Source: a virus. Taken from it: 64,000 nucleotides of DNA. The notes beneath the pieces are model-generated. The model was not told where the DNA came from and searched no databases. It saw nothing but the letters and a program-made list of their open reading frames with translations. The DNA lies in IMG/VR virus record IMGVR_UViG_3300035070_003385, positions 96,001 through 160,000 of that record; one strand, written 5' to 3'. This document shows positions 25,313-58,613 of the stretch, one piece after another. Made by a program: the position numbers and the translations under genes. Within the stretch, counting starts at the first letter, position 1; every line of letters begins with the position of its first letter.

Positions 25313-26374
25313 GTGGTAGTAGATCTATTCTTAGTTTATCAATTTATCCGTAGATTAGCTACGCCATTTGAAAAGTGGCCTGCTTACGAAGCAGGGGTTA
25401 TAGATAAAAAAGGAAATATACTCAAAGGAAAAAACCAAAGAAATTTAAAATCTGAAAAAGATTCATTTGGTATTTTTGATTTGATGATATTAAAAATCAA
25501 AAAGCTTTTAGCTAAACTACCAGGCGGATCATCAAATTTTGCTTCCTATGCCGCAGCGCTGTTTCTCATAAAAGAATGGAAACATTTTACTAATGATAGC
25601 ATGCTTAATGAATCTATTTCTGAAGAGAATATTGACCAGTCACTGGATTTGTTTTTTAGTAGATATAATCATTATAACACACTTTCAGAAAATGTCAATA
25701 GTTTTTTAGATGAAAAACTTAAAAAATCAGATGATATGGGTACATGGATTAAAGATTTTTATGACTCAGATGCTCCTCAATTCAAAGGTAAATCAAAAGC
25801 AAAACGCCGGCAAATGGCCGTTGCTGCAAAACTTGACGCTATGGATGAAGCACGAAAACTACAACCTCCTAAATGGAAAAAGGCTGGACCCAATGGAGAA
25901 AAAGAAATTACTTTTCCGACTGGCCGTCGCTTTAAGATAGAAAAACAATATGATGAAAATATTCGTCATAAGGGTGAGTGGAAAGTAATGGAATGGGATC
26001 CTCGCTCTCGTGATTGGGAATGGCATGAAACATTTAGTCCACAATGGTATGCGAAAGAAAAAGTAATGGAACTAGGTAAATATGATTCCAAAGGTAAAAA
26101 AGTTACTGAGTCAGCAATTAATATGCGTACTTTAAAACTTATCAATAAAATTAAAAAGTCCGGTGTTGTAAAATCCGGTTCTATGTCAAAAAATGTAAAC
26201 ACAAAACCGACGATGAAAGAAGAACCAACAAATAGCGTTGGATCTGGCGCTGTTGCTGGTTTAGGCGTTGGTCCACAGGGAGAGCCAGGATTGACTCCTG
26301 CTCAAATGAAAAAGTATAAAAAGAAAAACAAAGGTCCAAAAAGACTAAGGGATATTATAGGAGCGAATACATGA
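25313..26374 (+). CDS. T4 gp30.3-like N-terminal domain extended by extra modules
   Basis: YQFIRRLATPFEKWPAYEAGVIDKKG resembles T4 30.3 as recalled; GTG start. Confidence 0.55.
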   Translation: MVVDLFLVYQFIRRLATPFEKWPAYEAGVIDKKGNILKGKNQRNLKSEKDSFGIFDLMILKIKKLLAKLPGGSSNFASYAAALFLIKEWKHFTNDSMLNESISEENIDQSLDLFFSRYNHYNTLSENVNSFLDEKLKKSDDMGTWIKDFYDSDAPQFKGKSKAKRRQMAVAAKLDAMDEARKLQPPKWKKAGPNGEKEITFPTGRRFKIEKQYDENIRHKGEWKVMEWDPRSRDWEWHETFSPQWYAKEKVMELGKYDSKGKKVTESAINMRTLKLINKIKKSGVVKSGSMSKNVNTKPTMKEEPTNSVGSGAVAGLGVGPQGEPGLTPAQMKKYKKKNKGPKRLRDIIGANT

Positions 26375-27231
26375 TTACTCTTGAACAATTTAGCGCAATG
26401 ATACCAAGAAATAAAGAACCTGAAGCCTGGTATGAAAATGTTGTTGACATGTTTAAAAAATATGATATAATAACACCATTACGTATTGCTGGTTTTATGG
26501 CACAATGTGGTCATGAATCAGCTGACTTTACTGCACTCGAAGAAAATTTAAATTATAGCGAAAAAGCTTTGAATGGTGTATTTGGTAGGTATTTTGGAAA
26601 AGATAAAAGAAACGCAGCTGATTATGCTCGTAAACCTGAAAAGATTGCTAACTATGTGTACCAAGATGAATTCCGTTCTAAACGCGGGGCAATGGGTAAT
26701 ACAGAAGACGGTGATGGTTGGAGATTCCGCGGTAGAGGAATTAAACAGTTAACCGGGCGCAACAACTATACTGCATTTGGCAAATCTGTTGGAATGTCAG
26801 CAGAAGAAGCGGCTGAATACGTAGCAACGAAAAAGGGTGCTCTTGAGTCAGCTTGCTGGTTTTGGGCCACAAACAAAATTGATAGATATGCAGACAATGA
26901 CGATATTGTAGGAATGACAAAACGTATTAACGGCGGTACAATTGGTTTAGACGACCGTAAATCACGATATGCAAGGGCAAAAAGTATTTTAGGTGGTGAA
27001 AGTATTCCAACGCCAAAGAAAACTTCAAGCAGCTCCTCGTCTAATAAAAGAACACTGCGCAAAGGCATGAAAGGCGACGATGTTGCTAAAATGCAAAAAG
27101 CTCTCGGTGTTACTGCAGACGGCGATTTTGGGTTTGGTACTTTGGGTGTAGTAAAAAAATGGCAGCGATCAAACGGATTAACTCCAGACGGTATAGTTGG
27201 TCCAAAGACTCAAGCAAAAATGTTTAGATGA
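26371..27231 (+). CDS. endolysin: GH19 lysozyme plus C-terminal peptidoglycan-binding domain
   Basis: AQCGHES, EENLNYS, DGWRFRGRGIKQLTGRNNY; LRKGMKGDDV..DGDFG..DGIVGPKT. Confidence 0.92.
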   Translation: MITLEQFSAMIPRNKEPEAWYENVVDMFKKYDIITPLRIAGFMAQCGHESADFTALEENLNYSEKALNGVFGRYFGKDKRNAADYARKPEKIANYVYQDEFRSKRGAMGNTEDGDGWRFRGRGIKQLTGRNNYTAFGKSVGMSAEEAAEYVATKKGALESACWFWATNKIDRYADNDDIVGMTKRINGGTIGLDDRKSRYARAKSILGGESIPTPKKTSSSSSSNKRTLRKGMKGDDVAKMQKALGVTADGDFGFGTLGVVKKWQRSNGLTPDGIVGPKTQAKMFR

Positions 27232-31321: not shown

Positions 31322-31486
31322 AAAATTAAAAATATGTGAAACAATTAAAGCATATTGCGTGTAATACTAATAAATATAACATGTTGTTGACATTACCTGT
31401 CTAAAAATTCAAAAAATAAAAAATAAAAATAAAAACCGTATTGCGGAATACGTTTTCTTTACTTAATCAACAAAAAAGGTACTTGT

Positions 31487-32767
31487 ATGTTACAAAATTC
31501 TTTGACTCCAGAATATTTCAAAAAAGTAAATTATGTTTTAAAGCGAGACGGCACTACTGAAGGATTTGACGCAAGCAAAATAGAAACCGCAGTTTCTAAG
31601 GCAATGAAATCTATTGGAATTAGGAGTAAGAATCTTTCTAACGAAGTTACTGATGAGGTGGAAACGCTTTTAAACAATGATCCAAAAGATGTTATAGTAG
31701 ATGTTGACTCAGTCCATAAAGCAGTAGAAAACGTAATTATGGATATGGGTTTACACGATTTGGCTCGTGAGTATATTCTTTTCCGTTTTAATAACAAACC
31801 GAATATTTTTCGTAAACGTGCAGCATTAAAACCATACGAGTATCCACAGCTAGTTGAATACACAGATGCAATTCGTCATTCATATTGGGTACATACAGAA
31901 TTTAATTATTCTTCAGATATTCAAGATATGAAAGTCAAAATGGATCCATCTGAAGTTGAAATCGTAAAGAAAGCTATGTTAGCTATTTCACAAATCGAAG
32001 TTGCTGTTAAAACATTTTGGTCTAAGATTGGCGATCGTTTTCCTAAACCTGAAGTAGCTGCTGTCGGTATTACATTTGGTGAATCAGAAGTACGCCACGC
32101 CGATGCATATTCGAACTTAATTGAAATCATGGGTCTTAACGAAGAGTTTGAAAAAGTCGTAGAAGTGCCTGCTATGAAAAAGCGTATCGCTTACCTTGAG
32201 CAATCAATTGGATCGCCAGCAGATGATAAAGACTATTTCCATAAAATTATTTTATTTTCGATGTTCGTGGAAAACGTTTCGTTATTTAGCCAATTCCTTA
32301 TTATGATGGCTTTCAATAAACACAAAAATGTACTCAAAGGTATTTCAAACGCCGTTGAAGCTACATCCAAAGAAGAAGATATTCACGCTCGTTTTGGGTT
32401 TGAACTTGTGAATATTATTCGTGAAGAAAACCCAGATTGGTTTGATAAAGATAGTAACGCAGAAGTCAATCGTCTTTGCCGTGACGCATTCAAAGCAGAA
32501 TCAGCAATTGTTGATTGGATTTATGGCGACCACGATCTAGACTTTTTACCTAAAGCAACAGTGAAAGAATTTTTAAAGCACCGTTTTAATCAATCACTCA
32601 AAGCAATTGATATGAAGCCTTTGTATGAAGTAGATGAAGAAGCGGTCCGCAGCACTGACTGGTTTGTAGAAGAAATTTTAAGCACTAAAAACGTCGACTT
32701 TTTTGTTAAGCGTTCAACCGCGTATTCAAAGAAAACAAAAGCTTTCACTGAAGATGATTTATTTTAA
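31487..32767 (+). CDS. nrdB: ribonucleotide reductase beta subunit with N-terminal ATP-cone (class Id/NrdBi-like)
   Basis: VLKRDG..FDASKI ATP-cone; KPYEYP, QIEVAVKTFW, ESEVRHADAY, ENVSLFSQF, EEDIH, DFFVKRSTAY. Confidence 0.9.
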   Translation: MLQNSLTPEYFKKVNYVLKRDGTTEGFDASKIETAVSKAMKSIGIRSKNLSNEVTDEVETLLNNDPKDVIVDVDSVHKAVENVIMDMGLHDLAREYILFRFNNKPNIFRKRAALKPYEYPQLVEYTDAIRHSYWVHTEFNYSSDIQDMKVKMDPSEVEIVKKAMLAISQIEVAVKTFWSKIGDRFPKPEVAAVGITFGESEVRHADAYSNLIEIMGLNEEFEKVVEVPAMKKRIAYLEQSIGSPADDKDYFHKIILFSMFVENVSLFSQFLIMMAFNKHKNVLKGISNAVEATSKEEDIHARFGFELVNIIREENPDWFDKDSNAEVNRLCRDAFKAESAIVDWIYGDHDLDFLPKATVKEFLKHRFNQSLKAIDMKPLYEVDEEAVRSTDWFVEEILSTKNVDFFVKRSTAYSKKTKAFTEDDLF

Positions 32768-32778
32768 GGAAATATGTA

Positions 32779-34476
32779 ATGAGAAAATACAAAAAATTCT
32801 ATTGGCTAAATGATGACGCAAAGACATTTTTGTCGCGTGGTTATTTAGAAGAAAAAGAAAAGCCACAGGACCGTATTCGTGTCATTGCTGATAAAGCTGA
32901 ATGGTACCTTAAGGATATGGCAAAAACAAAAGCAGGTAAAACTACATATGATGGTTTTGCAGATAAGTTTTACGATTATATGAGCCGTGGATTTTATTCC
33001 TTAGCATCTCCTATTTGGGCTAACTACGGTAAAGAGCGTGGACTACCAGTATCATGCTTTGGTTCTTACATCGATGATAGCATGGAAGCAATACTATTTG
33101 GTCATGCTGAAAATGGTATGTTAATGAAAAACGGTGGTGGTACGTCAGGTTACTTTGGCGCTGTTCGTCATCGTGGTGCTCCAATTCGTGATTCAGGCGA
33201 GTCTTCAGGTTCAGTGCACTTTATGCAGATGTATGATACTTTGGCATCAGTTGTATCGCAAGGTTCAGTTCGCCGCGGTTTCTTTGCGGCATACCAAGAC
33301 ATTGAGCATCCTGATGCTGACGAGTTTCTAGACATTGGCACAGAAGGTAATCCTATCCAAGGGCTTACAACTGGTATCACTGTTAGTAATAAATTCATTG
33401 ATGAAATGAAAGCAGGCGATCCTGAGAAACGTCGTTTGTGGGCTAAGGTGCTACAGCGTCGTTCTGAAATTGGTTATCCTTATATCCTATTCTCGGATAA
33501 CGTAAACAACGGTCGCCCTCAAGTTTATAAAGATAAGGATATGCGAGTATATGCTTCCAATATGTGTGCCGAGATTGCATTGCCATCCTCACACGAAGAA
33601 ACGTTTACTTGTGTGCTATCATCTCTTAATGTTTTACATTGGGATGAAATCAAAGAAACAGATGCTATTGAAGTATTAACAATGTTTCTTGATACAGTAT
33701 GTGAAGAGTTTGTTCGTAAAACCGCCGGCCAAATCTATATGAAACGTGCTCGTGATTTTGCTGTGAAACACAGAGCCCTTGGTGCTGGTATTTTGGGCTG
33801 GCATTCGCATTTACAATCTAAAATGATTTCCTTTGAGTCAAAAGAAGCTGCGCAACTAAATCTTGAAATTGCTAAAACAATGCAAGAAAAATCATATCAA
33901 GCTTCGCGTGAAATGGCTAAGACATTAGGTGAGCCAGAATTGCTAGAAGGTTATGGAATGCGTAATACCACAACAATGGCTATTGCTCCTACAAAATCAT
34001 CGAGCTTTATCCTTGGGCAAGTATCACAATCCATTGAGCCAGAATTCTCTAACGCTTACGTTAAAGATTTGGCGAAAATGAAAGTTACTATTCGCAATCC
34101 ATATCTTAAGGAATTGCTTGTATCTAAAGATCAAGATACAGTTGATGTATGGGACTCTATTAAAACCCGCGATGGCTCAGTACAGCATCTTGAGTTCTTG
34201 ACTGAAGACGAACGCGCAGTATTTAAAACATTCTCTGAGATTAGTCCTAATACTATTGTTGACCAGGCAGCTATTCGTCAGCAATTCATTGACCAATCAC
34301 AAAGCTTAAACTTGATGCTTGATCCAGACATGACAGTTAAAGATATTAATTCGTTATATCTATATGCGGCTGAAATGGGCGTAAAAAGCTTGTATTATGC
34401 GTATTCTATGTCCGCGGCGCAATCACTAACTCGTAAACGCGTTATGTCTGATGATTGCGCAGCATGCGAAGCATAA
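32779..34476 (+). CDS. nrdA: ribonucleotide reductase alpha subunit, short, no ATP-cone (NrdAi-like)
   Basis: GLPVSCF, GGGTS, SNMCAEI, FTCVLSS, AIAPTKSSS, LYYAY, C-terminal CAACEA. Confidence 0.95.
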   Translation: MRKYKKFYWLNDDAKTFLSRGYLEEKEKPQDRIRVIADKAEWYLKDMAKTKAGKTTYDGFADKFYDYMSRGFYSLASPIWANYGKERGLPVSCFGSYIDDSMEAILFGHAENGMLMKNGGGTSGYFGAVRHRGAPIRDSGESSGSVHFMQMYDTLASVVSQGSVRRGFFAAYQDIEHPDADEFLDIGTEGNPIQGLTTGITVSNKFIDEMKAGDPEKRRLWAKVLQRRSEIGYPYILFSDNVNNGRPQVYKDKDMRVYASNMCAEIALPSSHEETFTCVLSSLNVLHWDEIKETDAIEVLTMFLDTVCEEFVRKTAGQIYMKRARDFAVKHRALGAGILGWHSHLQSKMISFESKEAAQLNLEIAKTMQEKSYQASREMAKTLGEPELLEGYGMRNTTTMAIAPTKSSSFILGQVSQSIEPEFSNAYVKDLAKMKVTIRNPYLKELLVSKDQDTVDVWDSIKTRDGSVQHLEFLTEDERAVFKTFSEISPNTIVDQAAIRQQFIDQSQSLNLMLDPDMTVKDINSLYLYAAEMGVKSLYYAYSMSAAQSLTRKRVMSDDCAACEA

Positions 34477-34548: not shown

Positions 34549-35037
34549 ATGAAAAAAATACTAACTGGTTTATTAATTATATTTGCATCAGCTACGTCAT
34601 CCGCTGCAAATTGCAATAAAGAAAATCAAATCCACGCGCTAGCAATGAACATGTATCACGAGGCGCGTGGAGAAGGATCTGAAGCAATGCAATTGGTTGG
34701 AGAAGTGACTTTGAATAGAACTGGCAGTAAGCATTTTCCAAATAACATTTGTGATGTTGTTTATCAAGCGCGGCTTGATAGTAAAGGAAATCCAAAGCGT
34801 CATAAATGTCAATTTTCGTGGTTTTGCGATGGACGATCAGATAAACCTTATGATGCAAAATCATGGAAACTAGCTGAAGCCATAGCAAGCGGCCTTGTAA
34901 ATAAATCTATTTCATTAATTGGAATTAATGCCACGCACTATCATACAACGCGTGTAAAACCATATTGGGCAAAAAAATATAATAGGCTTGGTAGACATGG
35001 AGATCACATTTTTTATCAAATGGGAAACAAGCTGTGA
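34549..35037 (+). CDS. SleB-like cell wall hydrolase with signal peptide
   Basis: LAMNMYHEARGE, VTLNR, FPNNICDVVYQ, QFSWFCDG, ATHYH, HIFY. Confidence 0.9.
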   Translation: MKKILTGLLIIFASATSSAANCNKENQIHALAMNMYHEARGEGSEAMQLVGEVTLNRTGSKHFPNNICDVVYQARLDSKGNPKRHKCQFSWFCDGRSDKPYDAKSWKLAEAIASGLVNKSISLIGINATHYHTTRVKPYWAKKYNRLGRHGDHIFYQMGNKL

Positions 35038-36472: not shown

Positions 36473-36524
36473 TTAAATGAATCAATTAGAACATGCGTTT
36501 TTTAATCGCAAAAAGGATAATAAT

Positions 36525-36953
36525 ATGATAAAAATTAAAAAGGCTTTTTGGTTTATGTTAGGAGTTATTTTAGTAGGAGTAGCTTACATTGGTATATTTC
36601 TTCCAGGATTGCCATGGAGCACCCCAATCCTTGGAGCGACATTTTGTTTTGCCAAGTCCTCCGACCGTCTCCATAACTGGATTATGAACCACCCACGCTT
36701 CGGGCCGTTCGTTAAAAATTGGTCTAAGTATCGTGTATATCCACAAAAAGCAAAATATCTTATGGTAGCTGTTATGGCCTCATCATTGGGGTTTATGTAT
36801 TTTGGCACAGGTAACGTAATGGCAACACTATATTTGTTTATTACGTTTGCGATCATTATAACATGGGCATGGCGTTATCCTGGATCTCAAGCAGAAGCAG
36901 AACGTCGTATTGCAGCCGGTGAACGTATTGGTTGGTTAAAAATAAAAAAATGA
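36525..36953 (+). CDS. YbaN / DUF454 family inner-membrane protein
   Basis: IGIFLPGLPWSTPILGATFCFAKSSDRLHNWIMNHPRFGPFVKNW signature. Confidence 0.85.
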   Translation: MIKIKKAFWFMLGVILVGVAYIGIFLPGLPWSTPILGATFCFAKSSDRLHNWIMNHPRFGPFVKNWSKYRVYPQKAKYLMVAVMASSLGFMYFGTGNVMATLYLFITFAIIITWAWRYPGSQAEAERRIAAGERIGWLKIKK

Positions 36954-37495: not shown

Positions 37496-37993
37496 TCATT
37501 TTGACCATCTTCGTATAGAAATAGCAGTTTTTGCTTTATAATATGAATAACTTACCTTATCATTTTGGTTGCCTCCTAAAATGGTATAATATTCTATTCC
37601 TTGACTTGTAAAAGAATTTATATAAAAACCTACATGCCCTTGCCAAACAGAACCGCCTCGAGGAAATATTATTATATCGCCTCGCTGCGGAGATTCTACT
37701 TCATTTCCCCAATCAAGAAAGCTTCGTGCCATTAAAGGATGATCGTGAAATTCGCTAGATCCCGGGATGTCAACGGAATCAAGAATAACATTGACGAATG
37801 CTGCACACCATTCAGTGCGTGTTGGATCTATTCCTAGAAGTGATTTTAATGAACTGCGGTGATTATTTTCATGCATGCCAACGTACTTATCCGCGTTAGC
37901 AATTAGGCTGCTGATTTTAGTTTCTTTTTTAATGGTTTCTACGCTAGAGCAAGAGACTAGAAAAACTAAAATAAATAGAAATAGTATTTTCAT
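37496..37993 (-). CDS. TIGR02594-like (NlpC/P60-CHAP fold) peptidase lipoprotein
   Basis: EWCAAFVN, ARSFLDWG, RGDIIIFPRG, GHVGFY, ILGGNQ; signal LFILVFLVS-C. Confidence 0.82.
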   Translation of the reverse strand: MKILFLFILVFLVSCSSVETIKKETKISSLIANADKYVGMHENNHRSSLKSLLGIDPTRTEWCAAFVNVILDSVDIPGSSEFHDHPLMARSFLDWGNEVESPQRGDIIIFPRGGSVWQGHVGFYINSFTSQGIEYYTILGGNQNDKVSYSYYKAKTAISIRRWSK

Positions 37994-38014
37994 ATAATAA
38001 AAGGAAACCTTTTT

Positions 38015-38236
38015 ATGTATACTGCAATGATTCTCGTATGTCTTTCTGATCATATTGTAGACATTAATAACTGTTTAGTTTTATCTAATCAATACGTACA
38101 CAAAACCGAAGTGGAATGTGTAAATTCTATTGCTGATTTTTTAAATAATGAAATGTTTTATGTGATGTATAACGATTACAATTTGGAAAATTTTTCATGT
38201 TACGAATGGTTTAACAATTCTGGCAGTAAAATATAG
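38015..38236 (+). CDS. hypothetical protein
   Basis: ORF track; AAGGA RBS. Confidence 0.55.
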   Translation: MYTAMILVCLSDHIVDINNCLVLSNQYVHKTEVECVNSIADFLNNEMFYVMYNDYNLENFSCYEWFNNSGSKI

Positions 38237-40835: not shown

Positions 40836-41155
40836 TGAAAAAAGAATACGTTGTTATAACTACAATTTCAACTCACAAATCTCGATTTGTTATTCATAAA
40901 GATGAATTGCAAAAAATGAACACTGATATTACTCTTACAGACGAATTGGCTTTTGACTGGGCAAAAGACTCTGTTTTGTGTAATGAAATTAAAGAATTTT
41001 CTCAAGAATGGCTAGGAGACAGTTTTATTGATGCCGATATTAAAACTGAAGAAGAAATTTTACAATTGTTTGACCGTGAAAATGATTACCTGAAAAACTG
41101 GCCGGTTAGCCAAAAAATGGATTGGATAAAAAATTGGAGAGAAACAGATGTCTGA
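40832..41155 (+). CDS. hypothetical protein
   Basis: Coupled ORF. Confidence 0.65.
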   Translation: MMKKEYVVITTISTHKSRFVIHKDELQKMNTDITLTDELAFDWAKDSVLCNEIKEFSQEWLGDSFIDADIKTEEEILQLFDRENDYLKNWPVSQKMDWIKNWRETDV

Positions 41156-41414
41156 CATAGTAGTGACTATATATGGAAAAGATAATTGCCATTGGTGCAA
41201 AGAAGCAAAATCTTTAGCTGAAAATTATTCTCTTAAGTACGAATATAAAAATATAGGCACATCAGAAAATAGAAACGAAATGTTTAAATTGGTTCCTAAT
41301 GCTAAAACTGTACCACAAATATTTTGGAATAATAAACATATAGGTGGATATAATGAATTTGCTTCTGAAATCGAAAATACGTTAGGTAGCAATTTTGGGC
41401 AAGAACTTTTTTAA
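41148..41414 (+). CDS. nrdC: glutaredoxin (NrdC-like)
   Basis: CHWC active site, KTVPQIF, HIGGY. Confidence 0.9.
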   Translation: MSDIVVTIYGKDNCHWCKEAKSLAENYSLKYEYKNIGTSENRNEMFKLVPNAKTVPQIFWNNKHIGGYNEFASEIENTLGSNFGQELF

Positions 41415-42518: not shown

Positions 42519-42953
42519 ATGTGGTATTATCAAGGTAAAGAATTTACTTCGGAAATGATTGGGGATTATATTGGTTTCGTATATATAATTACTGACACTT
42601 CAAACGATAAAAAATATATCGGAAAAAAAATCTTTAAATCCAAAAGAAAACTTCAACCGCTTAAGGGTAAAACCCGAAAACGGACTAAAATTGTTGAATC
42701 TGATTGGATGAAATATTACGGCTCATCAGAAGAAGTTAAGCTTATGGTTGAAGAAAAAGGTGCAAATACCTTTTACCGAGAAATAATTCATCTTTGTGAT
42801 AAGAAAGGAGAAATGGGATATCTTGAGCTTTATGAACAAATCACTCGTCACGCGTTATTAGACGATTCATATTATAACGGTATTTGTCAAGCAAAAATCC
42901 ACAGAAGCCATGTTAAAGGATTAAAATGGCTTATGAGTCATACTAATGGTTGA
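42519..42953 (+). CDS. GIY-YIG family endonuclease
   Basis: GFVYIITDT..KKYIGKK, DWMKYYGSS, YYNG. Confidence 0.8.
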   Translation: MWYYQGKEFTSEMIGDYIGFVYIITDTSNDKKYIGKKIFKSKRKLQPLKGKTRKRTKIVESDWMKYYGSSEEVKLMVEEKGANTFYREIIHLCDKKGEMGYLELYEQITRHALLDDSYYNGICQAKIHRSHVKGLKWLMSHTNG

Positions 42954-49796: not shown

Positions 49797-50099
49797 ATGA
49801 GCAAAGGAATTGTAAGAGATAGAATAGACCGTCATTATGGTCACGCGTCTCCTACTCCAAACCCATTCCACCAAACTCCATATAACTCAACGAAACAAGA
49901 AAAAGTTTTCGTTGAGACACGTAGGGCTATTGTCAAGGGTGATAAAACCGCCTGCGGAGATCCTGCCGTAGGCGCATCTACAAAGGTTTTTGCGCAAGGA
50001 ATTGGTGTGCATAGAAAGCTGGACACTACGGGCGGTCATGGATCTTGGCCTGCAAATGCCGCGAAAGGTGGTTCTGGTAAGGTATTTGCAGGTGGATAA
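49797..50099 (+). CDS. PAAR-like baseplate spike tip (gp5.4-like)
   Basis: GDKTACGD..GASTKVFAQG..HRKLD..GH..GSGKVFAG. Confidence 0.8.
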   Translation: MSKGIVRDRIDRHYGHASPTPNPFHQTPYNSTKQEKVFVETRRAIVKGDKTACGDPAVGASTKVFAQGIGVHRKLDTTGGHGSWPANAAKGGSGKVFAGG

Positions 50100-50102
50100 A
50101 TT

Positions 50103-50363
50103 ATGAGTACGAAACCAAATTATAGAAGTTTTCTTGCTCAAATCGCGGCAGAAACAGACCCTATTGAAAAACAGCGTTTGATTGAACTTACGTATCAATT
50201 TGTGTTTGACGATATTAATGAAGAAGATAAAATAGCCTTTTCGTATGTTAACGACGATTACGTAGTACCAAACCCAGGTTACCAACCTTACGGTCCTGAA
50301 ACAATGGGTCTCTTTGCTGCATACGTCGGGCTGTATTATAGTGACGAAGGAGAAACCACATAA
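50103..50363 (+). CDS. hypothetical virion-region protein
   Basis: YVNDDYVVPNPG; late operon. Confidence 0.6.
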   Translation: MSTKPNYRSFLAQIAAETDPIEKQRLIELTYQFVFDDINEEDKIAFSYVNDDYVVPNPGYQPYGPETMGLFAAYVGLYYSDEGETT

Positions 50364-51394
50364 TGGCTATAATATTACGCCGCGATAAAGGTTTTGCACT
50401 TACTTTTGATGAGTTAGACGATAACTTCGCTCAACTTTCTGGTGGATCTAGTTTAATTATCGCTAATACCGCTCCTTTAGAGCCAAGCGATGGCCAAATG
50501 TGGTTGGATACAGGTATCACTCAAAGAACCTTTGCATGGTCGGTTGAAGCTGGTGGTGTATGGCTTGACATTTCTCCTAGTAATAAAACAACAATATCAG
50601 AGACTGAACCTCTCGTAAAAAATACTGGAGACGGTTGGTTTGATACGTCAGCTGGTGGTGTAGGTTCTTTAGTATTATGGAATGGCACCTCTTGGGTTGA
50701 AGTAATTGGAACTGGTGGTAATAATGATGTAGCCATTGCTACTGTTCAAGAGATTACAGCATCAGGTACAATTGCTCTAGATAAAACAACAGGTGGTGCG
50801 TGGGTAAGGTTCCACGGTGCAACAGGTTCTGGTGGTGGTGCAGGTCTTTATACTTCGAATAACGGAAACTTTTACGCAGTAGCCTCCAGATCTGGTGCTG
50901 CAGGCGAAGCAGTGTTCTACGTTTCGGACGTATCGACACTCCAAGGTACATCTGTAACATTAGGTGCTGGTGGTGCAGCCCACTTGTTGGGTGTACCTAA
51001 TGGTAGTGCTAGAACGGATAGTGGTACAGAAGGTACTACTTCAAGTTGGACATTAGGTTCTGGCGCTATCGACATCACGCCAGGTACAGCAGGCGGGTCA
51101 GGTGTGGTAACAGCAATATCTAACGGATATCCTACACCTGCAAATGGTACAGATGGTACAGTAACAAACACATCCGGTATTACACTTGATCCTTCATACT
51201 CAGGTATGGCATCGGTTTATGAGGATAATGCCACAAACTACTTGATTGGAACCTCGAGGTTTATTGAACAGGGTGGAGGCCAGACCAGTGGTGGAGTGGG
51301 TTTAGCTACGGCAAGTAGCGAGTCCGCAGCGGCCATTGTTGTGGCATCTCCAGCTGGTTGGAATGGTGCTATCTACATCGTGTACGATAATTAG
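50363..51394 (+). CDS. Gly-rich tail fibre / fibre-associated protein
   Basis: IILRRDKG..LTFDELDDNF N-terminus; DGQMWLDT / GDGWFDT repeats; glycine-rich C-terminus. Confidence 0.65.
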   Translation: MAIILRRDKGFALTFDELDDNFAQLSGGSSLIIANTAPLEPSDGQMWLDTGITQRTFAWSVEAGGVWLDISPSNKTTISETEPLVKNTGDGWFDTSAGGVGSLVLWNGTSWVEVIGTGGNNDVAIATVQEITASGTIALDKTTGGAWVRFHGATGSGGGAGLYTSNNGNFYAVASRSGAAGEAVFYVSDVSTLQGTSVTLGAGGAAHLLGVPNGSARTDSGTEGTTSSWTLGSGAIDITPGTAGGSGVVTAISNGYPTPANGTDGTVTNTSGITLDPSYSGMASVYEDNATNYLIGTSRFIEQGGGQTSGGVGLATASSESAAAIVVASPAGWNGAIYIVYDN

Positions 51395-51405
51395 AGGATT
51401 AACAA

Positions 51406-51723
51406 ATGACTAAAATATTTGAAAAAGACGGGCGCCGCATTGTAGTAGCAGATGATGCCAACTTGGCTGATTGGCCTGGTTATGTTGAGGAAGGGTTAGC
51501 CGAAGAAGTTAGAACAGAACGTGATGCCCTCTTGTTAGCATCTGATGCAAATTGGGCAAAATGCACTTCAATACTTTGGGGCGGTGGAAGCTATGCAGCG
51601 TGGAAAAGCAATACATACTGCCAAGCTTGGGCAATTTATCGTCAAGCACTCAGAGATGTTACAATCCAAGCAGGTTTCCCCGAAACAATTGTTTGGCCAA
51701 CTAAACCAGGAGAAAATTTCTAA
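51406..51723 (+). CDS. tail fibre assembly chaperone-like protein
   Basis: [13 protein letters not shown]...[23 protein letters not shown]. Confidence 0.8.
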
Positions 51724-54700
51724 TGGCTTTTCCAACATCACCATCAGATGGCGACACATATGTTGTTGGGTCTGTTACGTTTACTTATAACGCGGCAACC
51801 AACGTTTGGGTTAGATCAGGAAGCGGTTCTGTTGCAATACAAGGTACTCAAGGTACTACTGGCGAACAAGGTACTCAAGGTACTACTGGCGAACAAGGAA
51901 CGCAAGGCGCAATTGGAGCTGGTCTTCAAGGCGAACAAGGAACGCAAGGTAGTTTTGGCATTCAGGGCCAGGATGGGCGAGGCGAAACTGGCTTCCAAGG
52001 TTTACAAGGTATTACTGGCGAACAGGGTATTCAAGGCGAGCAAGGCGTCCAAGGTATTCAAGGTTGGCAAGGCGTTCAAGGTCTGCAAGGTACTATCGGT
52101 GAATTTGGTCTACAAGGTCTTCAAGGGCGACGTGGTATTCAGGGTATCCAAGGCTTTCAAGGAATCCAAGGACTTCAAGGAAACCAAGGTATTCAAGGTA
52201 TTCAGGGTATCCAAGGACTTCAAGGAAACCAAGGTGTCCAGGGGATGCAAGGTATTCAAGGTATTCAAGGTATCCAAGGACTTCAAGGAAACCAAGGTGT
52301 ACAAGGTACAGGCGGTTTAGGTGAGCAAGGTTTACAAGGCACTAATGGTGAGCAAGGCATTCAAGGTACTGCCGGGTACGGAAATCAAGGTTTACAAGGT
52401 ATTCAAGGCAACTTAGGATTCCAAGGTATTCAAGGTACTCAAGGCGCACAAGGTAACCAAGGTTTTCAAGGACCGCAGGGTATTCAAGGCGAACAGGGTG
52501 TACAGGGTGTTCAAGGCGACTTTGGATTCCAAGGTACAACTGGCGTAGGCTTTCAAGGGACGGTTGGACAACAAGGTATTCAAGGTATTCAAGGACTTCA
52601 AGGAAGTCAAGGTGTACAAGGTACTCAAGGCGTCCAAGGCATTATGGGAGAGCAAGGACTTCAAGGTTCTCAAGGACTCCAAGGTGCGTTCGGCCCTGCT
52701 TTAAATATTATTGGAGCAGTAGGCGATGTTAACGTAAATCCACCTAACAATCCAAACACATTATTAAATGCACAATTCCCGTCAGCTGGTGTTGGTGAAA
52801 CTGTTATTGACGAAGCGTCAAACGATTTGTGGGCATATACTGGCAATAATGTTTGGATAAATGTTGGTCCTGTAAGAGGGGTACAGGGTTTCCAAGGTAT
52901 GCAAGGTGTTCAAGGCGTACAAGGCGTGCAAGGTATGCAAGGTACCCAGGCTCCTCAAGGTATTCAAGGTAATTTGGGTACACAAGGATCCCAAGGTACT
53001 CAGGGTATTCAAGGCGTACAAGGTATTCAAGGTATCCAAGGTGTACAAGGTATACAGGGCGAGCAGGGTGTTCAAGGACTTCAAGGATCTCCTATACAAG
53101 GTATGCAAGGTCGTCAAGGTATCCAAGGTTTCGATGGCATCCAAGGTATTCAGGGCGAACAAGGTATTCAGGGTATTCAAGGCGAGCAAGGCGTACAAGG
53201 TGTACAAGGCATGCAGGGTATCCAAGGTACTCAAGGTATTCAAGGTGGAGGCGGACACCAAGGATTGCAAGGCAGCCAAGGCCTTCAAGGTATTCAGGGC
53301 ATTCAAGGCAAAACTGGTGATCCATTTAGAATAATAGGATCTATCGAAGACGTTAATGTTAACTTCCCGGCGCGCACTCCTGAAGAAATAATAAGAGAAG
53401 CATTCGGGCCGACACTCGATGGGCAACCTCCAACTGAAAGACCTTCTATAGCGGGCCCGGATCTTTCAGACGGTATTATTGATCGCCAGCTAAACGAATT
53501 TTGGTTGTGGGACGGTAATGAATGGATAAACACCGGAGACATAGTTGGTCCGCAGGGTATCCAAGGCACTGCCAATCAAGGCCGGCAAGGTATCCAAGGT
53601 ACTCAAGGTGTGCAAGGTATCCAAGGCCGTCAAGGTATCCAAGGTATACAGGGCGAGCAAGGTTTACAAGGTACTGCAATACAAGGATCGCAAGGTTTTC
53701 AAGGCATTATTGGAAATCGTGGATTTCAAGGTTTTCAAGGTATTCAAGGTATACAGGGTACTGCGATTCAAGGTACACAAGGTATGCAAGGTATCCAAGG
53801 TCGTCAAGGTATCCAAGGTAATACCGGTAACCCGTTTAGAATACTTGGGACCGTGGCAGACGTAAATCAGGCTCCAACATTTGATCCACAAGTAATATTA
53901 GAAACTGCGTTTGCAGATGCTGTTCCAGGTGATGCTGTTATAGATGAATTAACAAATGACTTGTGGACTTTTACTCCTGACGACGGTGGAGAATGGATAA
54001 ATGTAGGAAACATTGTTGGCCCACAGGGTATTCAAGGAATCCAAGGTATTCAAGGTATTCAAGGTATTCAGGGTGTGCAGGGTAATGCGGGCGAACAGGG
54101 TGTCCAAGGTATTCAAGGATCGTACGGCCGGCAGGGTATCCAAGGTACTGGAAATGAAGGTTCTCAAGGTGTCCAAGGTACAACTGGCGCGCAGGGTGTA
54201 CAAGGTTTACGTGGACCCGGCCAAGGTGTCCAAGGTATACAAGGTACTGCCACACAAGGTATACAAGGTATACAAGGTACTCGTGGCGTGCAAGGTAGAC
54301 AAGGTATTCAAGGACGCCAAGGTTTACAGGGCATTCAAGGTCGTCAAGGTATTCAAGGTTTACAAGGTAGCCAGGGTGTACAAGGTATTCAAGGTCTACA
54401 AGGTACTCAAGGTCGTCAGGGTATTCAGGGTATTCAGGGTATTCAAGGTGTGCAGGGTATCCAAGGTATTCAAGGTTTACAAGGTATCCAAGGTATTCAG
54501 GGTCGTCAGGGTATTCAGGGTATTCAAGGTATGCAAGGCCGCCAAGGCCGGCAAGGTATTCAAGGTCGTCAAGGTACACAGGGTACACAAGGTCGCCAAG
54601 GTACACAAGGTATCCAAGGTCGCCGAGGTGCACAAGGTATCCAAGGTCGCCAAGGTACTCGAGGTGCTACTGGATACCAAGGTATGCAAGGACGGAGAGG

Positions 54701-56897
54701 TATTACTGGAGCTCAAGGTGTACGTGGCTGGCAAGGCGTTATGGGCCGGCAAGGTTTTCAAGGTATCCGCGGGTTCACCGGTGCTGGTACTCAGGGTACG
54801 CAAGGTATCCAAGGTATTCAAGGTCGTCAAGGTATTCAAGGTCGTCAAGGTATTCAAGGTACTCAAGGACTTACTGGTCAAGGTCTCCAAGGTCAGGCCG
54901 GGTCAACACAAGGTGCTCAAGGTAATCAAGGTATTGCCGGCGAAGGTGGGGGAGATCCGTTACCTATAGGTCAAGAAGGTGAAGTATTATATAATACTCA
55001 AGATAATACGAACAAAGCTAAGTTTGACGATCTAGTTAACATAGAACCAATTATTGTAACTGCAGAAGACCAAGTGCCTGCTTACTTTACTGAACCAGGG
55101 CCTCCGCCACCGTCTAGCCAGGAGATCTTTAATAATTGGTATAGGTTTTCACACAATTCAGGAACCAATTACCCAGCAAATGCGTCAGACGTTACCGCAT
55201 CGCAATGGCAGTTTGACGCCGTAAACGATGAAATCGTTGGGTTAAACAACACTGGCACTGCCGTTGGTTTTGTTTCGGATCTTAAGTATTCATACTACAC
55301 CTTAACATCCACTTTAAGAAGTGGCCAATACGACAACGATACGATTGGCATTGTTCTTGCATTCACGACAGAAGGAACTCCTGGACAGCCAGATTACAGG
55401 GAACATACACTAACAGCATTCAGAACTGGTGGTGGTACTGAAGGCGGGCGCACATGGGGTGTTACATATAATGCTCAACCCGGCGTATCTGTCATTATTG
55501 CTAACGGTTCCACTGCGGTACCTACTACTGGTGTGTGGTTTACGCTTGGTTCTACGATCGTCGACGTGGATCGACAAGGTGATACAATAATTGTAAAGAC
55601 TTCTCCGTTTGGTAGCGCAACATTGAGCGCAGCTTCAACTCTCACTATTGATTTAACGGATGCAACATTCGTTGACGGTAACGGTGATCCAATTCTAGAA
55701 AGGTTTAGAGGTCCTCAAGCTTACGGTTACATGGCTTATAGCCAAGGGGATGCGAGATTTAGCGGTAATTTTAGTGGTGTTTCATCCACAGACAATGTTG
55801 TTTATGATGTTATATCTGGTAAAGTTTATGGCTCACAAGTAAGCCCGCCGTATTATAAAGAGTTAGTGGGAGCTGCATCGTTTAATGACATTGCAGAACC
55901 TGGCAGATTTTACAATAACCCAGACACTCGAATTACTACTTGGAAATCTTCATTTGATAACAACAATTACCTGATAGGAGGAAGTGGCGGTGGATCGCAA
56001 GGCGTCCAAGGTATTCAAGGAACAACCGGTGGCGGCTCAATCGATTGCGTAGACTGTGACTATGACGAGCCAACCGATACGAATAACAGTGTAGCAATAC
56101 ACTCAAAGCAGTCAATGTACCTATTCATCGATGATAATAACACCGCAGGAGAAGATTCAAATTACTTTGGTTTCTATAATAACCTTGATCCATACTCAGA
56201 TACGGTAAATAGAGATAATACCATTTTTAGAATCGATGAGGATGGTTCAGTTAGAACAACAAATACAATATATGCAACAACAAGCGGAATACGTTTCCCT
56301 GATGATGCATACGGTGGTAGCGGTGACACTGCAAAGATCTACCTAGGCAGTGCTGGGGGAGAAGCTACTCAGCTTACTCTTGAAGTGACCAACGATATAA
56401 ATGATGAGATACATCTAAAAGTTCCAGACGATGACGGTGTAAAGATCAACGGATACATCGTTTACCATGAAGGGAACCATGTATGTGGTAATACAGGCGG
56501 TGGCGATGGTGCTGGGCTTTCTTCAAGAACTAATCTGCTAGCAACTACATCTTCTTTGGCAGACAACGCAAGTGAAGATGTAAACCTAACCGGATTTAAA
56601 GGTTACGCAGTATATGCAATCACAACAGATAGGGCGGCTTGGGTTAGATTATATATTAATGCTGCATCAAGAACTGCTGATGCTAGTAGAAACGAATTGA
56701 CAGATCCGGACCCAGACGCAGGAGTAATCTTAGAAGTTATAACGAATGGTGCTGAAACCGTTGTTATTTCACCAGCAGTATTTGGATACAACGGCGAAGT
56801 TCCAGCAACAACAAATATACCAATGACGATTACAAATAAATCAGGATCGAGTGGAGCTGTCCAAGTAACTGTTACTGCTCTTCAATTAGAGGTATAA
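51723..56897 (+). CDS. giant collagen-like (Gly-X-Gln) fibre protein with globular C-terminal domains
   Basis: About 1000 aa of G-X-Q triplets interrupted by three related globular inserts; C-terminal [25 protein letters not shown] module. Confidence 0.85.
51840..54945 (+). repeat. 9-bp-period collagen-coding repeat (CAAGGTATT-like)
   Basis: CAAGGN/CAGGGN recurring every 9 bp; exact 27-bp tandem duplication 51840-51893. Confidence 0.95.
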
Positions 56898-56900
56898 TAA

Positions 56901-58613
56901 ATGTTAAGAGAATGGATAGTTACTCTTTATAATCACGAGGATCTAGATGATTTTTATGATGATATGGAAACTCCTGGTGGTAGCTTATACATTCCTGACA
57001 GGGAAGTTACTGTTGAAAAAAAGAGACTTATAAGCCGCAATACTCATTATATGTTAACAGATGAAGAAGCCGAAGCGATAAAAAATGACAATAGGGTTCG
57101 TGGAGTCGATTTAGCAGAACTGGTAAATCTCACTATTCAGCCTTCCGGGTATAAGATAGAGGATGGTATATTTGCTAAAGATTGGGGTGCAGGTGGACCC
57201 CCATATACTTCTTTAACTGATTTAAATTGGGGTCTTTTACGCCAGTCTGAATCTTCCAATAGGTCAAATTGGGGCGATAACGGCACTCCTGAATTAACAT
57301 CCGATTTGATCATAACGGCATCTGGAAGAAATGTTGATGTAGTTATTTTTGATGGGCACATAGATCCAAATCACCCAGAATTTACTGTCAACTCAGATGG
57401 CTCTGGCGGATCGAGAATTAATCAATATAACTGGTTTCAAAACAACATAGGGTTTGGAACTGGTACATACACTTATACACCGTATGTTGATGGTAGTAAC
57501 GCTGCAAGGACTAGCGATAACGATCATGGTGTTCACGTGGGCGGAACCGTAGCAGGGAATACTCAAGGTTGGGCTCGAGACGCCAATATATACAATATAA
57601 ATCCACTTGGGTCAAATTCAAATTTTGGTACTCTTGGTCTAGACTCTTCAACTTATTGGGATTACGTAAGAGCTTGGCATAATAATAAACCAATTAATCC
57701 AGTGACTGGGAGGAAAAATCCTACTATTACAAATCATAGTTACGGGTCATCAATTACATACAATTCTGATGGTTTTGGGCCGGTGACTTCAGTAACTTTT
57801 CGTGGTGTAACGTACTCACCAGGAAGAGCACTAACCGTCGCAGAACTTCAAGCGCGAGGTTTCTTTACAAATGACACTTCACCCGGACCGATCCCGTATT
57901 ATTTTACATCATCAATTTCAGACTTTGAAGATGCAATAAACGATGGTATATTGACGATGTCAGCTGCAGGTAACGAATCGTGGAAAATAGTTAATCCTTC
58001 AGACCAAGACTATAACAATTCTTTTTTGGCAACATATAACGGTAGTAATTTTTTATGGTGGTTACATCGTGGAAACGGTATGGGTGCTGGCATTGATTCT
58101 AATATAACTGTTGGCGCTGTTGGGGTTAATGTAGAAGATTATAAAGGCAATTTTAGTAACTGCGGTAGCCAAGTAGATATATTTGCTGCTGGAACCGCAA
58201 TACAAAGCTCTCTTCACACTGTATCTGGCGAACAAGGTTCTACAGTTTATGACGCAAGAAACACTACTTACTATCTCGGGAAATACAGTGGTACGAGTAT
58301 GGCTTGTCCTCAGATATGTGGCATGTTAGCATGTCTTGCTGAACATTGGCCAAATATGACTCAGGCAGAAGCGACTCAGTGGCTCGTAGATTTTTGTAAC
58401 AAAAATCAAATGGGTGATACTGGCGCAGATAACGCAATGGACGTGCAAAGCTTGCAAGGGGCCCCAAACAAGTTTGCGAGATGGATCAATCAAAGGCCGG
58501 TCAACGGTGGAACATATCCTCGAAAAAACTTTAGACCGAGAACAGTTGATGACGACCCTGTTCATTATGGAAAAAGAGTGTACCCAAGACCTCGTATACG
58601 ACGAAGAGGTTAA
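56901..58613 (+). CDS. subtilisin-like serine protease (S8)
   Basis: Catalytic triad: VIFDGHID, DHGVHVGGTVAG, GTSMACP; oxyanion AAGNE. Confidence 0.93.
   Translation: MLREWIVTLYNHEDLDDFYDDMETPGGSLYIPDREVTVEKKRLISRNTHYMLTDEEAEAIKNDNRVRGVDLAELVNLTIQPSGYKIEDGIFAKDWGAGGPPYTSLTDLNWGLLRQSESSNRSNWGDNGTPELTSDLIITASGRNVDVVIFDGHIDPNHPEFTVNSDGSGGSRINQYNWFQNNIGFGTGTYTYTPYVDGSNAARTSDNDHGVHVGGTVAGNTQGWARDANIYNINPLGSNSNFGTLGLDSSTYWDYVRAWHNNKPINPVTGRKNPTITNHSYGSSITYNSDGFGPVTSVTFRGVTYSPGRALTVAELQARGFFTNDTSPGPIPYYFTSSISDFEDAINDGILTMSAAGNESWKIVNPSDQDYNNSFLATYNGSNFLWWLHRGNGMGAGIDSNITVGAVGVNVEDYKGNFSNCGSQVDIFAAGTAIQSSLHTVSGEQGSTVYDARNTTYYLGKYSGTSMACPQICGMLACLAEHWPNMTQAEATQWLVDFCNKNQMGDTGADNAMDVQSLQGAPNKFARWINQRPVNGGTYPRKNFRPRTVDDDPVHYGKRVYPRPRIRRRG

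Follow-up and report, generated by a model that had tools for sequence, protein, structure and literature searches.

What type of ribonucleotide reductase (RNR) does a marine T4-like phage carry when the ATP-cone sits on the beta subunit, and does this domain still work as a switch? The question is raised by nrdB and nrdA, two adjacent genes of an uncultivated marine T4-like phage represented by a 182,738-bp virus record of IMG/VR, which is estimated to be 91% complete. We analyzed a window of 64,000 nucleotides (positions 96,001-160,000 of IMGVR_UViG_3300035070_003385), to which all coordinates below refer. An original prediction, made from the letters of the window alone, had read the two genes as a class Id-like RNR with its ATP-cone on beta. 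Our results support this reading, in that a T4-like phage encodes a class Id-type (NrdAi/NrdBi) RNR whose beta subunit bears the ATP-cone. The gene structure and family placement are clear, the catalytic, metal and cone residues are intact, both domains of NrdB are under purifying selection, and the arrangement is widely distributed in marine T4-like phages. The features of the locus are as follows.

31487-32767, plus strand: nrdB, radical-generating beta subunit, 426 residues (PF03477, PF00268, full-length match to 5OLK)
31532-31792, plus strand: ATP-cone of NrdB, residues 16-102, proposed sensor of ATP and deoxyadenosine triphosphate (dATP) (PF03477)
31802-32764, plus strand: R2 core of NrdB, residues 106-426, class Id-type (NrdBi) (metal ligands, PF00268)
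32779-34476, plus strand: nrdA, minimal catalytic alpha subunit of the NrdAi type, 565 residues (TIGR02510)

Both open reading frames (ORFs) lie exactly where the original prediction had placed them, and the motifs that it had picked out in NrdB are found at residues 17-22 (VLKRDG), 27-28 (FD), 31-32 (KI) and 169-178 (QIEVAVKTFW). Pfam confirms the N-terminal ATP-cone, with PF03477 at residues 16-102 (E = 5.9e-16; 59 bits against a cut-off of 25.8), and places Ribonuc_red_sm (PF00268) at residues 113-383 (E = 8.5e-56). The gene order had also been read correctly: nrdA starts 11 nt past the nrdB stop, and its short product consists of the all-alpha and barrel domains only, without any match to PF03477. 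NrdA scores 755 bits against NCBIfam TIGR02510 ('NrdE-prime'), of which the curated cut-off is 602. Its catalytic set is complete, with Cys93, Asn261-x-Cys263-x-Glu265, Cys278, Tyr539-Tyr540 and the C-terminal Cys560/Cys563, all of which we take to be the equivalents of E. coli RNR residues.

Assignment to class Id

When NrdB was compared with all PDB sequences, the best match was NrdB of Leeuwenhoekiella blandensis (5OLK) over the full length including the cone (E = 3.5e-143). The next matches were the class Id betas 6SF4, 8DQ3 and 6CWO (E = 1e-131 to 1e-82), and the remaining PDB entries gave 4.5e-23 or worse (about 1e-10 for class Ic, 1e-4 for class Ib). Similarly, NrdA matched the class Id alphas 6DQX (E = 1.2e-206) and 6DQW (E = 4.3e-173), while other alphas gave 4e-48 or worse. 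The AlphaFold2 model of NrdB, built on a 35-sequence alignment, has a mean predicted local distance difference test (pLDDT) score of 73. A Foldseek search with this model returned the four chains of 5OLK first, across both domains (395 columns), and then only class Id betas.

The metal ligands of NrdB are E171, E201, H204, E262, E297 and H300, namely Glu/Glu/His/Glu/Glu/His, so the first ligand is Glu and not Asp. This pattern is the class Id row in Table 4 of Harrison et al. 2019 (PMC6370689). Further residues of the core are Lys175, which lies at +4 from the first Glu, Trp178, Tyr208, Thr293 and the C-terminal Tyr413; neither these nor the ligands vary among 130 homologues, of which 81 are viral and 49 bacterial. 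The equivalences listed here were taken from the alignment of NrdB with 5OLK and from the numbering in the L. blandensis papers.

Metal ligands: E171, E201, H204, E262, E297, H300 in the window; Glu170, Glu200, His203, Glu263, Glu298, His301 in L. blandensis
Lys of the helix-B loop: K175 in the window; Lys174 in L. blandensis
Val neighboring the Lys: V174 in the window; Val173 in L. blandensis
Conserved Trp: W178 in the window; Trp177 in L. blandensis
Non-radical Tyr: Y208 in the window; Tyr207 in L. blandensis
Thr partner of the Tyr: T293 in the window; Thr294 in L. blandensis

At the level of sequence, NrdB has the Lys, the Trp and the Tyr-Thr pair of class Id, in which the Lys belongs to the loop interrupting helix B and the Thr keeps the Tyr away from the metal. 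No match to NrdI (PF07972) was found in the 183-kb genome (91% complete), which fits class Id, unlike class Ib.

A maximum-likelihood tree was built from 49 NrdB core domains, including cone-less NrdBi-like proteins of Bacteroidia and the NrdBs of T4-like phages, pelagiphages and cyanophages. It places the phage NrdB inside the NrdBi-like set with a support of 99 in the Shimodaira-Hasegawa-like approximate likelihood-ratio test (SH-aLRT), and leaves the T4-like, pelagiphage and cyanophage NrdBs outside this set. The phylogeny proposed as a check on the original prediction therefore agrees with it, here in a tree of our own. The PDB ranking, the ligand pattern, the Lys/Trp/Tyr/Thr residues and the TIGR02510 score all point in the same direction.

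The closest characterized system is NrdAi/NrdBi of L. blandensis (5OLK, 6SF4, 6SF5; PMC5794259, PMC6754362), which also has an N-terminal cone on NrdB and a cone-less minimal NrdA encoded just downstream. Its metal ligands, Lys loop, Trp, Tyr and Thr are identical to those of the phage, and the core identity is ~60%. The enzymes of Flavobacterium johnsoniae, Aggregatibacter actinomycetemcomitans and Actinobacillus ureae (6CWO/P/Q, 8DQ3, 6DQW, 6DQX) agree with that of the phage in the Mn2 ligands, the Lys and the minimal alpha, but their betas lack an ATP-cone and their core identity is ~40-51%.

On the other hand, T4 and the Kyanoviridae phages Melnitz, S-PRM1 and ACG-2014f have class Ia-type RNRs, which play the same role in the T4-like replication module. 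In the NrdBs of these three Kyanoviridae phages, unlike that of the window, the first ligand is Asp and the Lys at +4 is missing, and their identity to the window's NrdB is at most 25%. Moreover, the Melnitz NrdB (L165:1225-2442) has a glutaredoxin-like N-terminus with CPFC, that is, a Grx::NrdB fusion without a cone. Because these nearest cultured relatives have such Asp-first and distant NrdBs, the contrast drawn earlier with the class Ia enzymes usual in T4-like phages holds.

ATP-cone of NrdB

In the AlphaFold2 model the cone has pLDDT values of 78-93 and consists of a beta-hairpin (residues 16-18 and 24-26) and helices at residues 29-42, 50-63, 73-86 and 90-103, so that the predicted fold is the canonical cone topology with a hairpin roof and four helices. 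The cone alone as query matches three solved two-nucleotide cones, namely those of 5OLK, 8P23 (P. copri NrdD) and 5IM3 (P. aeruginosa NrdA). In the viral and bacterial sequences alike, K19, R20, K31, A39, V80, E81, A93, I97 and R100 are invariant, and I32, A35, M85 and Y96 are nearly so. The inner nucleotide site comprises the Lys-Arg that follows the first strand (K19, R20) and the Lys-Ile in helix 1 (K31, I32): in a 35-row alignment the first three do not vary and I32 is conserved in 90% or more of the rows, and among the 130 homologues I32 is Ile in all but one, the exception being Val. The aromatic residue of the outer site, in the last helix, is F99 (Phe or Tyr throughout the clade), which aligns with Tyr83 of P. 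copri NrdD, the residue that stacks on the outer nucleotide.

For the viral clade, the ratio of nonsynonymous to synonymous substitution rates (dN/dS) was estimated at 0.13 in the cone and 0.03 in the core; these values come from 73 pairs with dS of about 1.6-1.8, and since dS is near saturation, only the ranking is trusted, in which the cone is looser than the core and both are well below 1. Both the cone and the core are under purifying selection. A check for degeneration of the cone had been suggested, and the domain is not degenerate, as the inner-site residues and the outer-site aromatic are retained. The cone probably senses adenine nucleotides, a function that its conserved residues support well.

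By analogy with L. blandensis, it is likely that dATP would switch the enzyme off by the beta4 mechanism of Leeuwenhoekiella, in which NrdB associates with itself via helices 3 and 4 to form an inactive beta4. Several points, however, weigh against carrying this mechanism over unchanged. First, the metal, the oxidant and the nucleotide response would all be transferred by homology from bacterial enzymes to which the phage protein is ~60% identical in the core and ~30% in the cone. Second, the end of the cone has been altered. The segment between Arg100 and Ile107 comprises 6 residues with 0-1 Lys/Arg in 82 of the 82 viral sequences, whereas each of the 49 bacterial sequences has 10 residues there, 3-6 of them Lys/Arg; both Firmicute-phage cone-NrdBs follow the bacterial pattern and keep the Arg-Lys. 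The replacement in the window is FNNKPN, and none of the 82 marine viral sequences has the basic residues at +3/+7 after the conserved Arg of the last helix. Compared with L. blandensis, the end of helix 4 and the linker are 4 residues shorter and have no Arg/Lys cluster. The lost positions align with P. copri Arg87 and Arg91 (equal to L. blandensis Arg98 and Arg102), and in P. copri NrdD these two arginines contact the phosphates of the second nucleotide. Third, Gln72-Asp73 of helix 3 in L. blandensis is replaced by His77-Lys/Arg78 in the phages (Gln72 by His77 and Asp73 by Lys78 in the window), and the equivalent of Asp73 is Lys, Arg or Gln in the marine viral clade. In L. blandensis, Asp73 forms a salt bridge in the dATP tetramer, and the 5OLK tetramer interface includes helix 3. 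In its cone, the marine viral clade differs from every bacterial and Firmicute-phage cone-NrdB examined. Finally, T4's own RNR resists dATP inhibition despite its cone, so phage cones are not always off-switches. Because of the 4-residue loss, the loss of the basic cluster and the change at the salt bridge, dATP inhibition by the Leeuwenhoekiella mechanism may be expected but is not assured.

These changes raise an alternative for the same enzyme, in which the cone has been rewired so that it binds one nucleotide only, acts as an ATP activator without dATP shut-off, or forms a different oligomer. The clade-wide deletion amounts to one helical turn and takes away the basic residues clustered where helix 4 ends, and His77-Lys/Arg78 in place of Gln-Asp recharges the helix-3 surface that lies in the 5OLK tetramer interface. 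In addition, H77, G88, L92, R94, N103, P105 and R109 are invariant specifically in this clade, as if a different surface were under constraint, and loss of dATP control has been argued to benefit fast lytic phages (Harrison et al., PMC6370689). However, the inner-site residues and the outer-site aromatic are kept, as are the tetramer-interface residues M85, I97, L98 and E81, with L. blandensis Lys89 replaced by Arg94; moreover, the importance of the lost arginines comes from other two-nucleotide cones and not from the NrdB type. A complex prediction for two copies of the cone (residues 1-106, own alignment) gave a median of 0.39 against a mark of 0.42, with controls at 0.00, and was counted on neither side. 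We regard a rewired cone as unlikely, though by no means negligible. If it were true, a lytic phage would have been freed from feedback inhibition while retaining the conserved domain, and a very abundant phage clade would offer a natural case of retuned RNR feedback in a domain under purifying selection. As for the proposal that the phage kept allosteric control on the beta subunit, the part concerning conservation of the cone stands, but in the marine clade some residues used by other two-nucleotide cones are gone.

Metal site and cofactor

The Mn2(IV,III) cofactor and the superoxide activation of class Id were established in 2018-2019, and the NrdB of L. blandensis is inhibited by Fe2+. From the core identity of ~60% with this protein, we infer that the phage NrdB would likewise contain Mn2(IV,III) made with superoxide and no tyrosyl radical. 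It is very unlikely that the cofactor is Mn/Fe, as in class Ic, or diiron. The first sphere E-E-H-E-E-H does not itself separate these cases, since the same all-Glu/His sphere is also given for class Ic (Table 4, PMC6370689). However, class Ic structures reach only E = 1e-10 to 1e-11 and 19-20% identity, compared with 43-60% for class Id; NrdB has the Lys175 loop, Trp178 and the Tyr208-Thr293 pair, which are specific to Id; and the bacterial NrdB that is ~60% identical in the core is the Fe2+-inhibited one.

The iron independence of a dimanganese enzyme had been put forward in a way that suggests iron sparing. Biogeography gives no help to this idea: in a 2026 preprint on RNR-carrying viral populations of the ocean, the abundance of subclass Id viruses rises with predicted iron (PMC12918982), and thus a simple iron-sparing story is not favored.

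Distribution and evolutionary origin

The arrangement is common in viruses. In a search of 5.8 billion proteins, the best 120 matches were all 80-92% identical, had both domains and came from contigs of up to 223 kb, and at least 114 viral contigs of IMG/VR carry the nrdB-nrdA pair at 70-91% identity. Among 135 viral and bacterial loci with nrdB, the downstream flank was recovered in 132, and in every one of these a cone-less nrdA follows. A T4-type primase stands upstream of nrdB in 53 of 81 viral loci. The closest bacterial homologues, in Flavobacteriia, several Patescibacteria and Aerococcaceae, are ~50-55% identical. We also sampled 151 genomes of the class of Polaribacter irgensii, which gave 4 NrdBi-like matches (E <= 1e-20), 1 with the cone (the P. 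irgensii genome) and 3 without; this sample served as a source of cone-less references and gives no estimate of distribution.

Megablast of the operon against cultured phages gave no match. At the protein level, 138 records of cultured phages have an NrdBi-like core (E <= 1e-40), none of them with more than 56% identity. Among cultured phages the cone fusion occurs in staphylococcal Silviavirus phages and Sporosarcina phage Lietuvens, and Rhizobium, Sinorhizobium and Roseobacter phages have the NrdBi-like core without it. The Silviavirus phages (e.g. vB_SauM_Remus, NC_022090) and Lietuvens encode cone::NrdBi followed by NrdAi with 48-56% identity, and their NrdBs fall in the same cone-bearing group of the tree as that of the window. 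They differ in that their cones retain the basic segment of 10 residues seen in bacteria, that their hosts are Firmicutes, and that they are Herelleviridae or unclassified phages rather than T4-like ones; in addition, many nrdA genes of this group are interrupted by homing-endonuclease elements.

Interruptions of nrdA, exactly at the codon of the catalytic Cys263, were also seen in some relatives of the window phage, of which its own nrdA is free. In one of them (L123:5313-7421, from IMG/VR), the insert is an in-frame mini-intein of 138 aa; it starts with Cys and ends with His-Asn ahead of the extein Cys. In four others (L117, L118, L135 and L138), nrdA is split into two ORFs with a ~290-aa ORF between them, which is possibly an intron/homing-endonuclease element.

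Viruses with such enzymes have been reported before. The beta-borne cone was discovered and characterized by Rozman Grinberg et al. (eLife 2018, PMC5794259), who stated that viruses encode cone-NrdBi, and cyanophage S-TIM5 was placed in class Id by Harrison et al. 2019 (PMC6370689). Among RNR-carrying viral populations of the ocean, subclass Id is always more abundant than Ia, and subclass Id or a cyanophage RNR group is the most abundant at any depth or latitude (PMC12918982). The rarity implied by the original prediction finds no support in these publications or in the Silviavirus and Lietuvens fusions.

In the tree, the NrdBi-like set contains a single group (SH-aLRT 93) that unites all cone-bearing NrdBs. 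Within this group the marine viral clade is monophyletic (SH-aLRT 100) with a long stem of 0.8, and the Flavobacteriia make up a separate clade (SH-aLRT 97) in which the viral clade is not nested. The tree singles out neither a donor nor a direction of transfer, and an uptake from Flavobacteria is not borne out by a long-stemmed viral clade outside the Flavobacteriia. Because the cone-bearing proteins form one group, the cone::NrdB fusion looks like a single old event, and the phage lineage seems to have acquired, or long carried, an already fused gene.

That nrdB and nrdA are bacterial DNA, brought in by mis-assembly or as a host fragment, is scarcely credible: a metagenome-assembled genome (MAG) labelled Rhodobacteraceae does contain an 88% identical nrdB, but its contig itself has the phage order primase-nrdB-nrdA-DUF454, the genes are shared by the many IMG/VR contigs mentioned above, other bacterial homologues are far more distant, and in the window the genes lie between T4-type primase/frd/td and Dda on the same strand and with the same GC content as their neighbors. 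The MAG contig in question (FZLS01000020.1, 43 kb, 'Rhodobacteraceae bacterium'; our locus L006) carries a T4-type primase, the 88% identical nrdB, a 95% identical nrdA and DUF454. It is probably a phage contig mis-binned into a bacterial MAG, and its binning is at most a weak hint of the host.

Genome context

The T4-like nature of the phage is evident from the window, which encodes T4-type UvsX, a gp41-like helicase, a gp61-like primase and a Dda helicase. By the helicase (~52% identity), the closest cultured kin are Methylophilales phage Melnitz and cyanomyoviruses, all of the Kyanoviridae. The nrdB and nrdA genes are located in the middle of the record, with primase, dihydrofolate reductase (frd) and thymidylate synthase (td) genes upstream of nrdB and the Dda helicase gene downstream of nrdA. 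Single matches to the R2 domain, the R1 barrel and the ATP-cone, the last on NrdB, were obtained in the whole 182,738-bp genome; neither a class III RNR (NrdD) nor any second RNR was found in this 91% complete genome. This contrasts with the bacterial situation, since all organisms with a cone-NrdB were described in the L. blandensis paper as having other RNRs too, and in the window phage the cone-NrdB enzyme is the sole RNR.

A glutaredoxin gene lies 6.7 kb downstream of nrdA.

41148-41414, plus strand: glutaredoxin, 88 residues, CHWC motif (PF00462, 49 bits against a cut-off of 22.9)

No second glutaredoxin match was obtained in the genome, and a thioredoxin match was not found there either. 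This glutaredoxin is a candidate reductant of the C-terminal cysteines of NrdA. A SegE-like GIY-YIG homing endonuclease (42519-42953, plus strand; PF19835, E = 4.7e-37) is encoded ~1 kb downstream of the glutaredoxin gene.

We searched for signals of expression around the operon. A scan for sigma-70 promoters and terminators between 28 and 36 kb gave counts at shuffle level, and nothing convincing was found in the 165-bp spacer between td and nrdB (31322-31486). This spacer is AT-rich and contains a TTGACA hexamer (31387-31392) for which no good -10 element is present, and a weak hairpin of 6 bp that precedes TTTTC (about 31436-31456); the z-score of its RNA fold is 0.43, and hence no RNA structure is supported there. 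Ten matches to the T4-type late promoter TATAAATA occur in the window, which does not exceed chance, and none lies upstream of nrdB. Similarly, the NrdR box has four matches with 3 mismatches in the window, none near nrdB and not above chance.

Some other genes near the operon may be mentioned. Three cell-wall hydrolase-like genes lie within 12 kb: a SleB-type Hydrolase_2 directly after nrdA (34549-35037, plus strand), of which the N-terminus resembles a signal peptide; a CHAP-domain protein (37496-38053, minus strand), whose gene is the sole sizeable minus-strand gene nearby; and a GH19 and peptidoglycan-binding protein (26371-27231, plus strand). A DUF454 membrane protein (36477-36953, plus strand; PF04304, E = 2.8e-29) is encoded downstream of nrdA, and in 31 of the 81 related viral loci its gene is no farther than 4 kb from nrdA. 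Farther away, the region 50000-57000 has a GC content of 0.45-0.47 against ~0.35 elsewhere, and covers an ORF of 1724 aa (51723-56897) followed by one of 570 aa; the latter is similar to a PHROG without known function and, less strongly, to PHROGs annotated as protease and tail fiber.

Proposed function and significance

Taken as a whole, we consider it probable that the phage relies on a single RNR of subclass Id with a dimanganese cofactor and a cone switch on NrdB for its supply of deoxynucleoside triphosphates (dNTPs). In this explanation, nrdA and nrdB would provide the sole RNR of the phage, an aerobic class I enzyme of subclass Id (NrdAi/NrdBi). The dimanganese cofactor of NrdB, as expected from its close homologues, would be oxidized by superoxide to Mn2(IV,III), and this cofactor rather than a tyrosyl radical would start the radical transfer through Tyr413 of the C-terminal tail to Cys263 of NrdA. 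The overall on/off sensor would be the ATP-cone on NrdB and not on NrdA: ATP would favor active alpha2-beta2 complexes, and dATP would be expected to shut it down by way of beta oligomers that the cones hold together, as in L. blandensis. The RNR would work beside the phage thymidylate synthase, dihydrofolate reductase and glutaredoxin to furnish dNTPs during infection.

The enzyme type, the cofactor and the beta-borne switch were already described and structurally solved in 2018-2019, and the presence in viruses was stated then. As the arrangement is common in viruses, the case is an ordinary one, save for a small lineage-specific change of the sensor; and as class Id is already recognized as a dominant class I RNR in ocean viromes, its presence here carries little weight as a discovery. 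It has some use for annotation, since database records of related phages still label these genes as 'class Ia'. One feature alone we did not find in earlier work: in this clade the cone ends in a shorter segment that has lost charge. This form of the domain, with its 4-residue deletion and lost Arg/Lys cluster, is a natural and, within the clade, strongly conserved variant with which to ask which residues matter for two-nucleotide binding and for dATP-dependent tetramerization.

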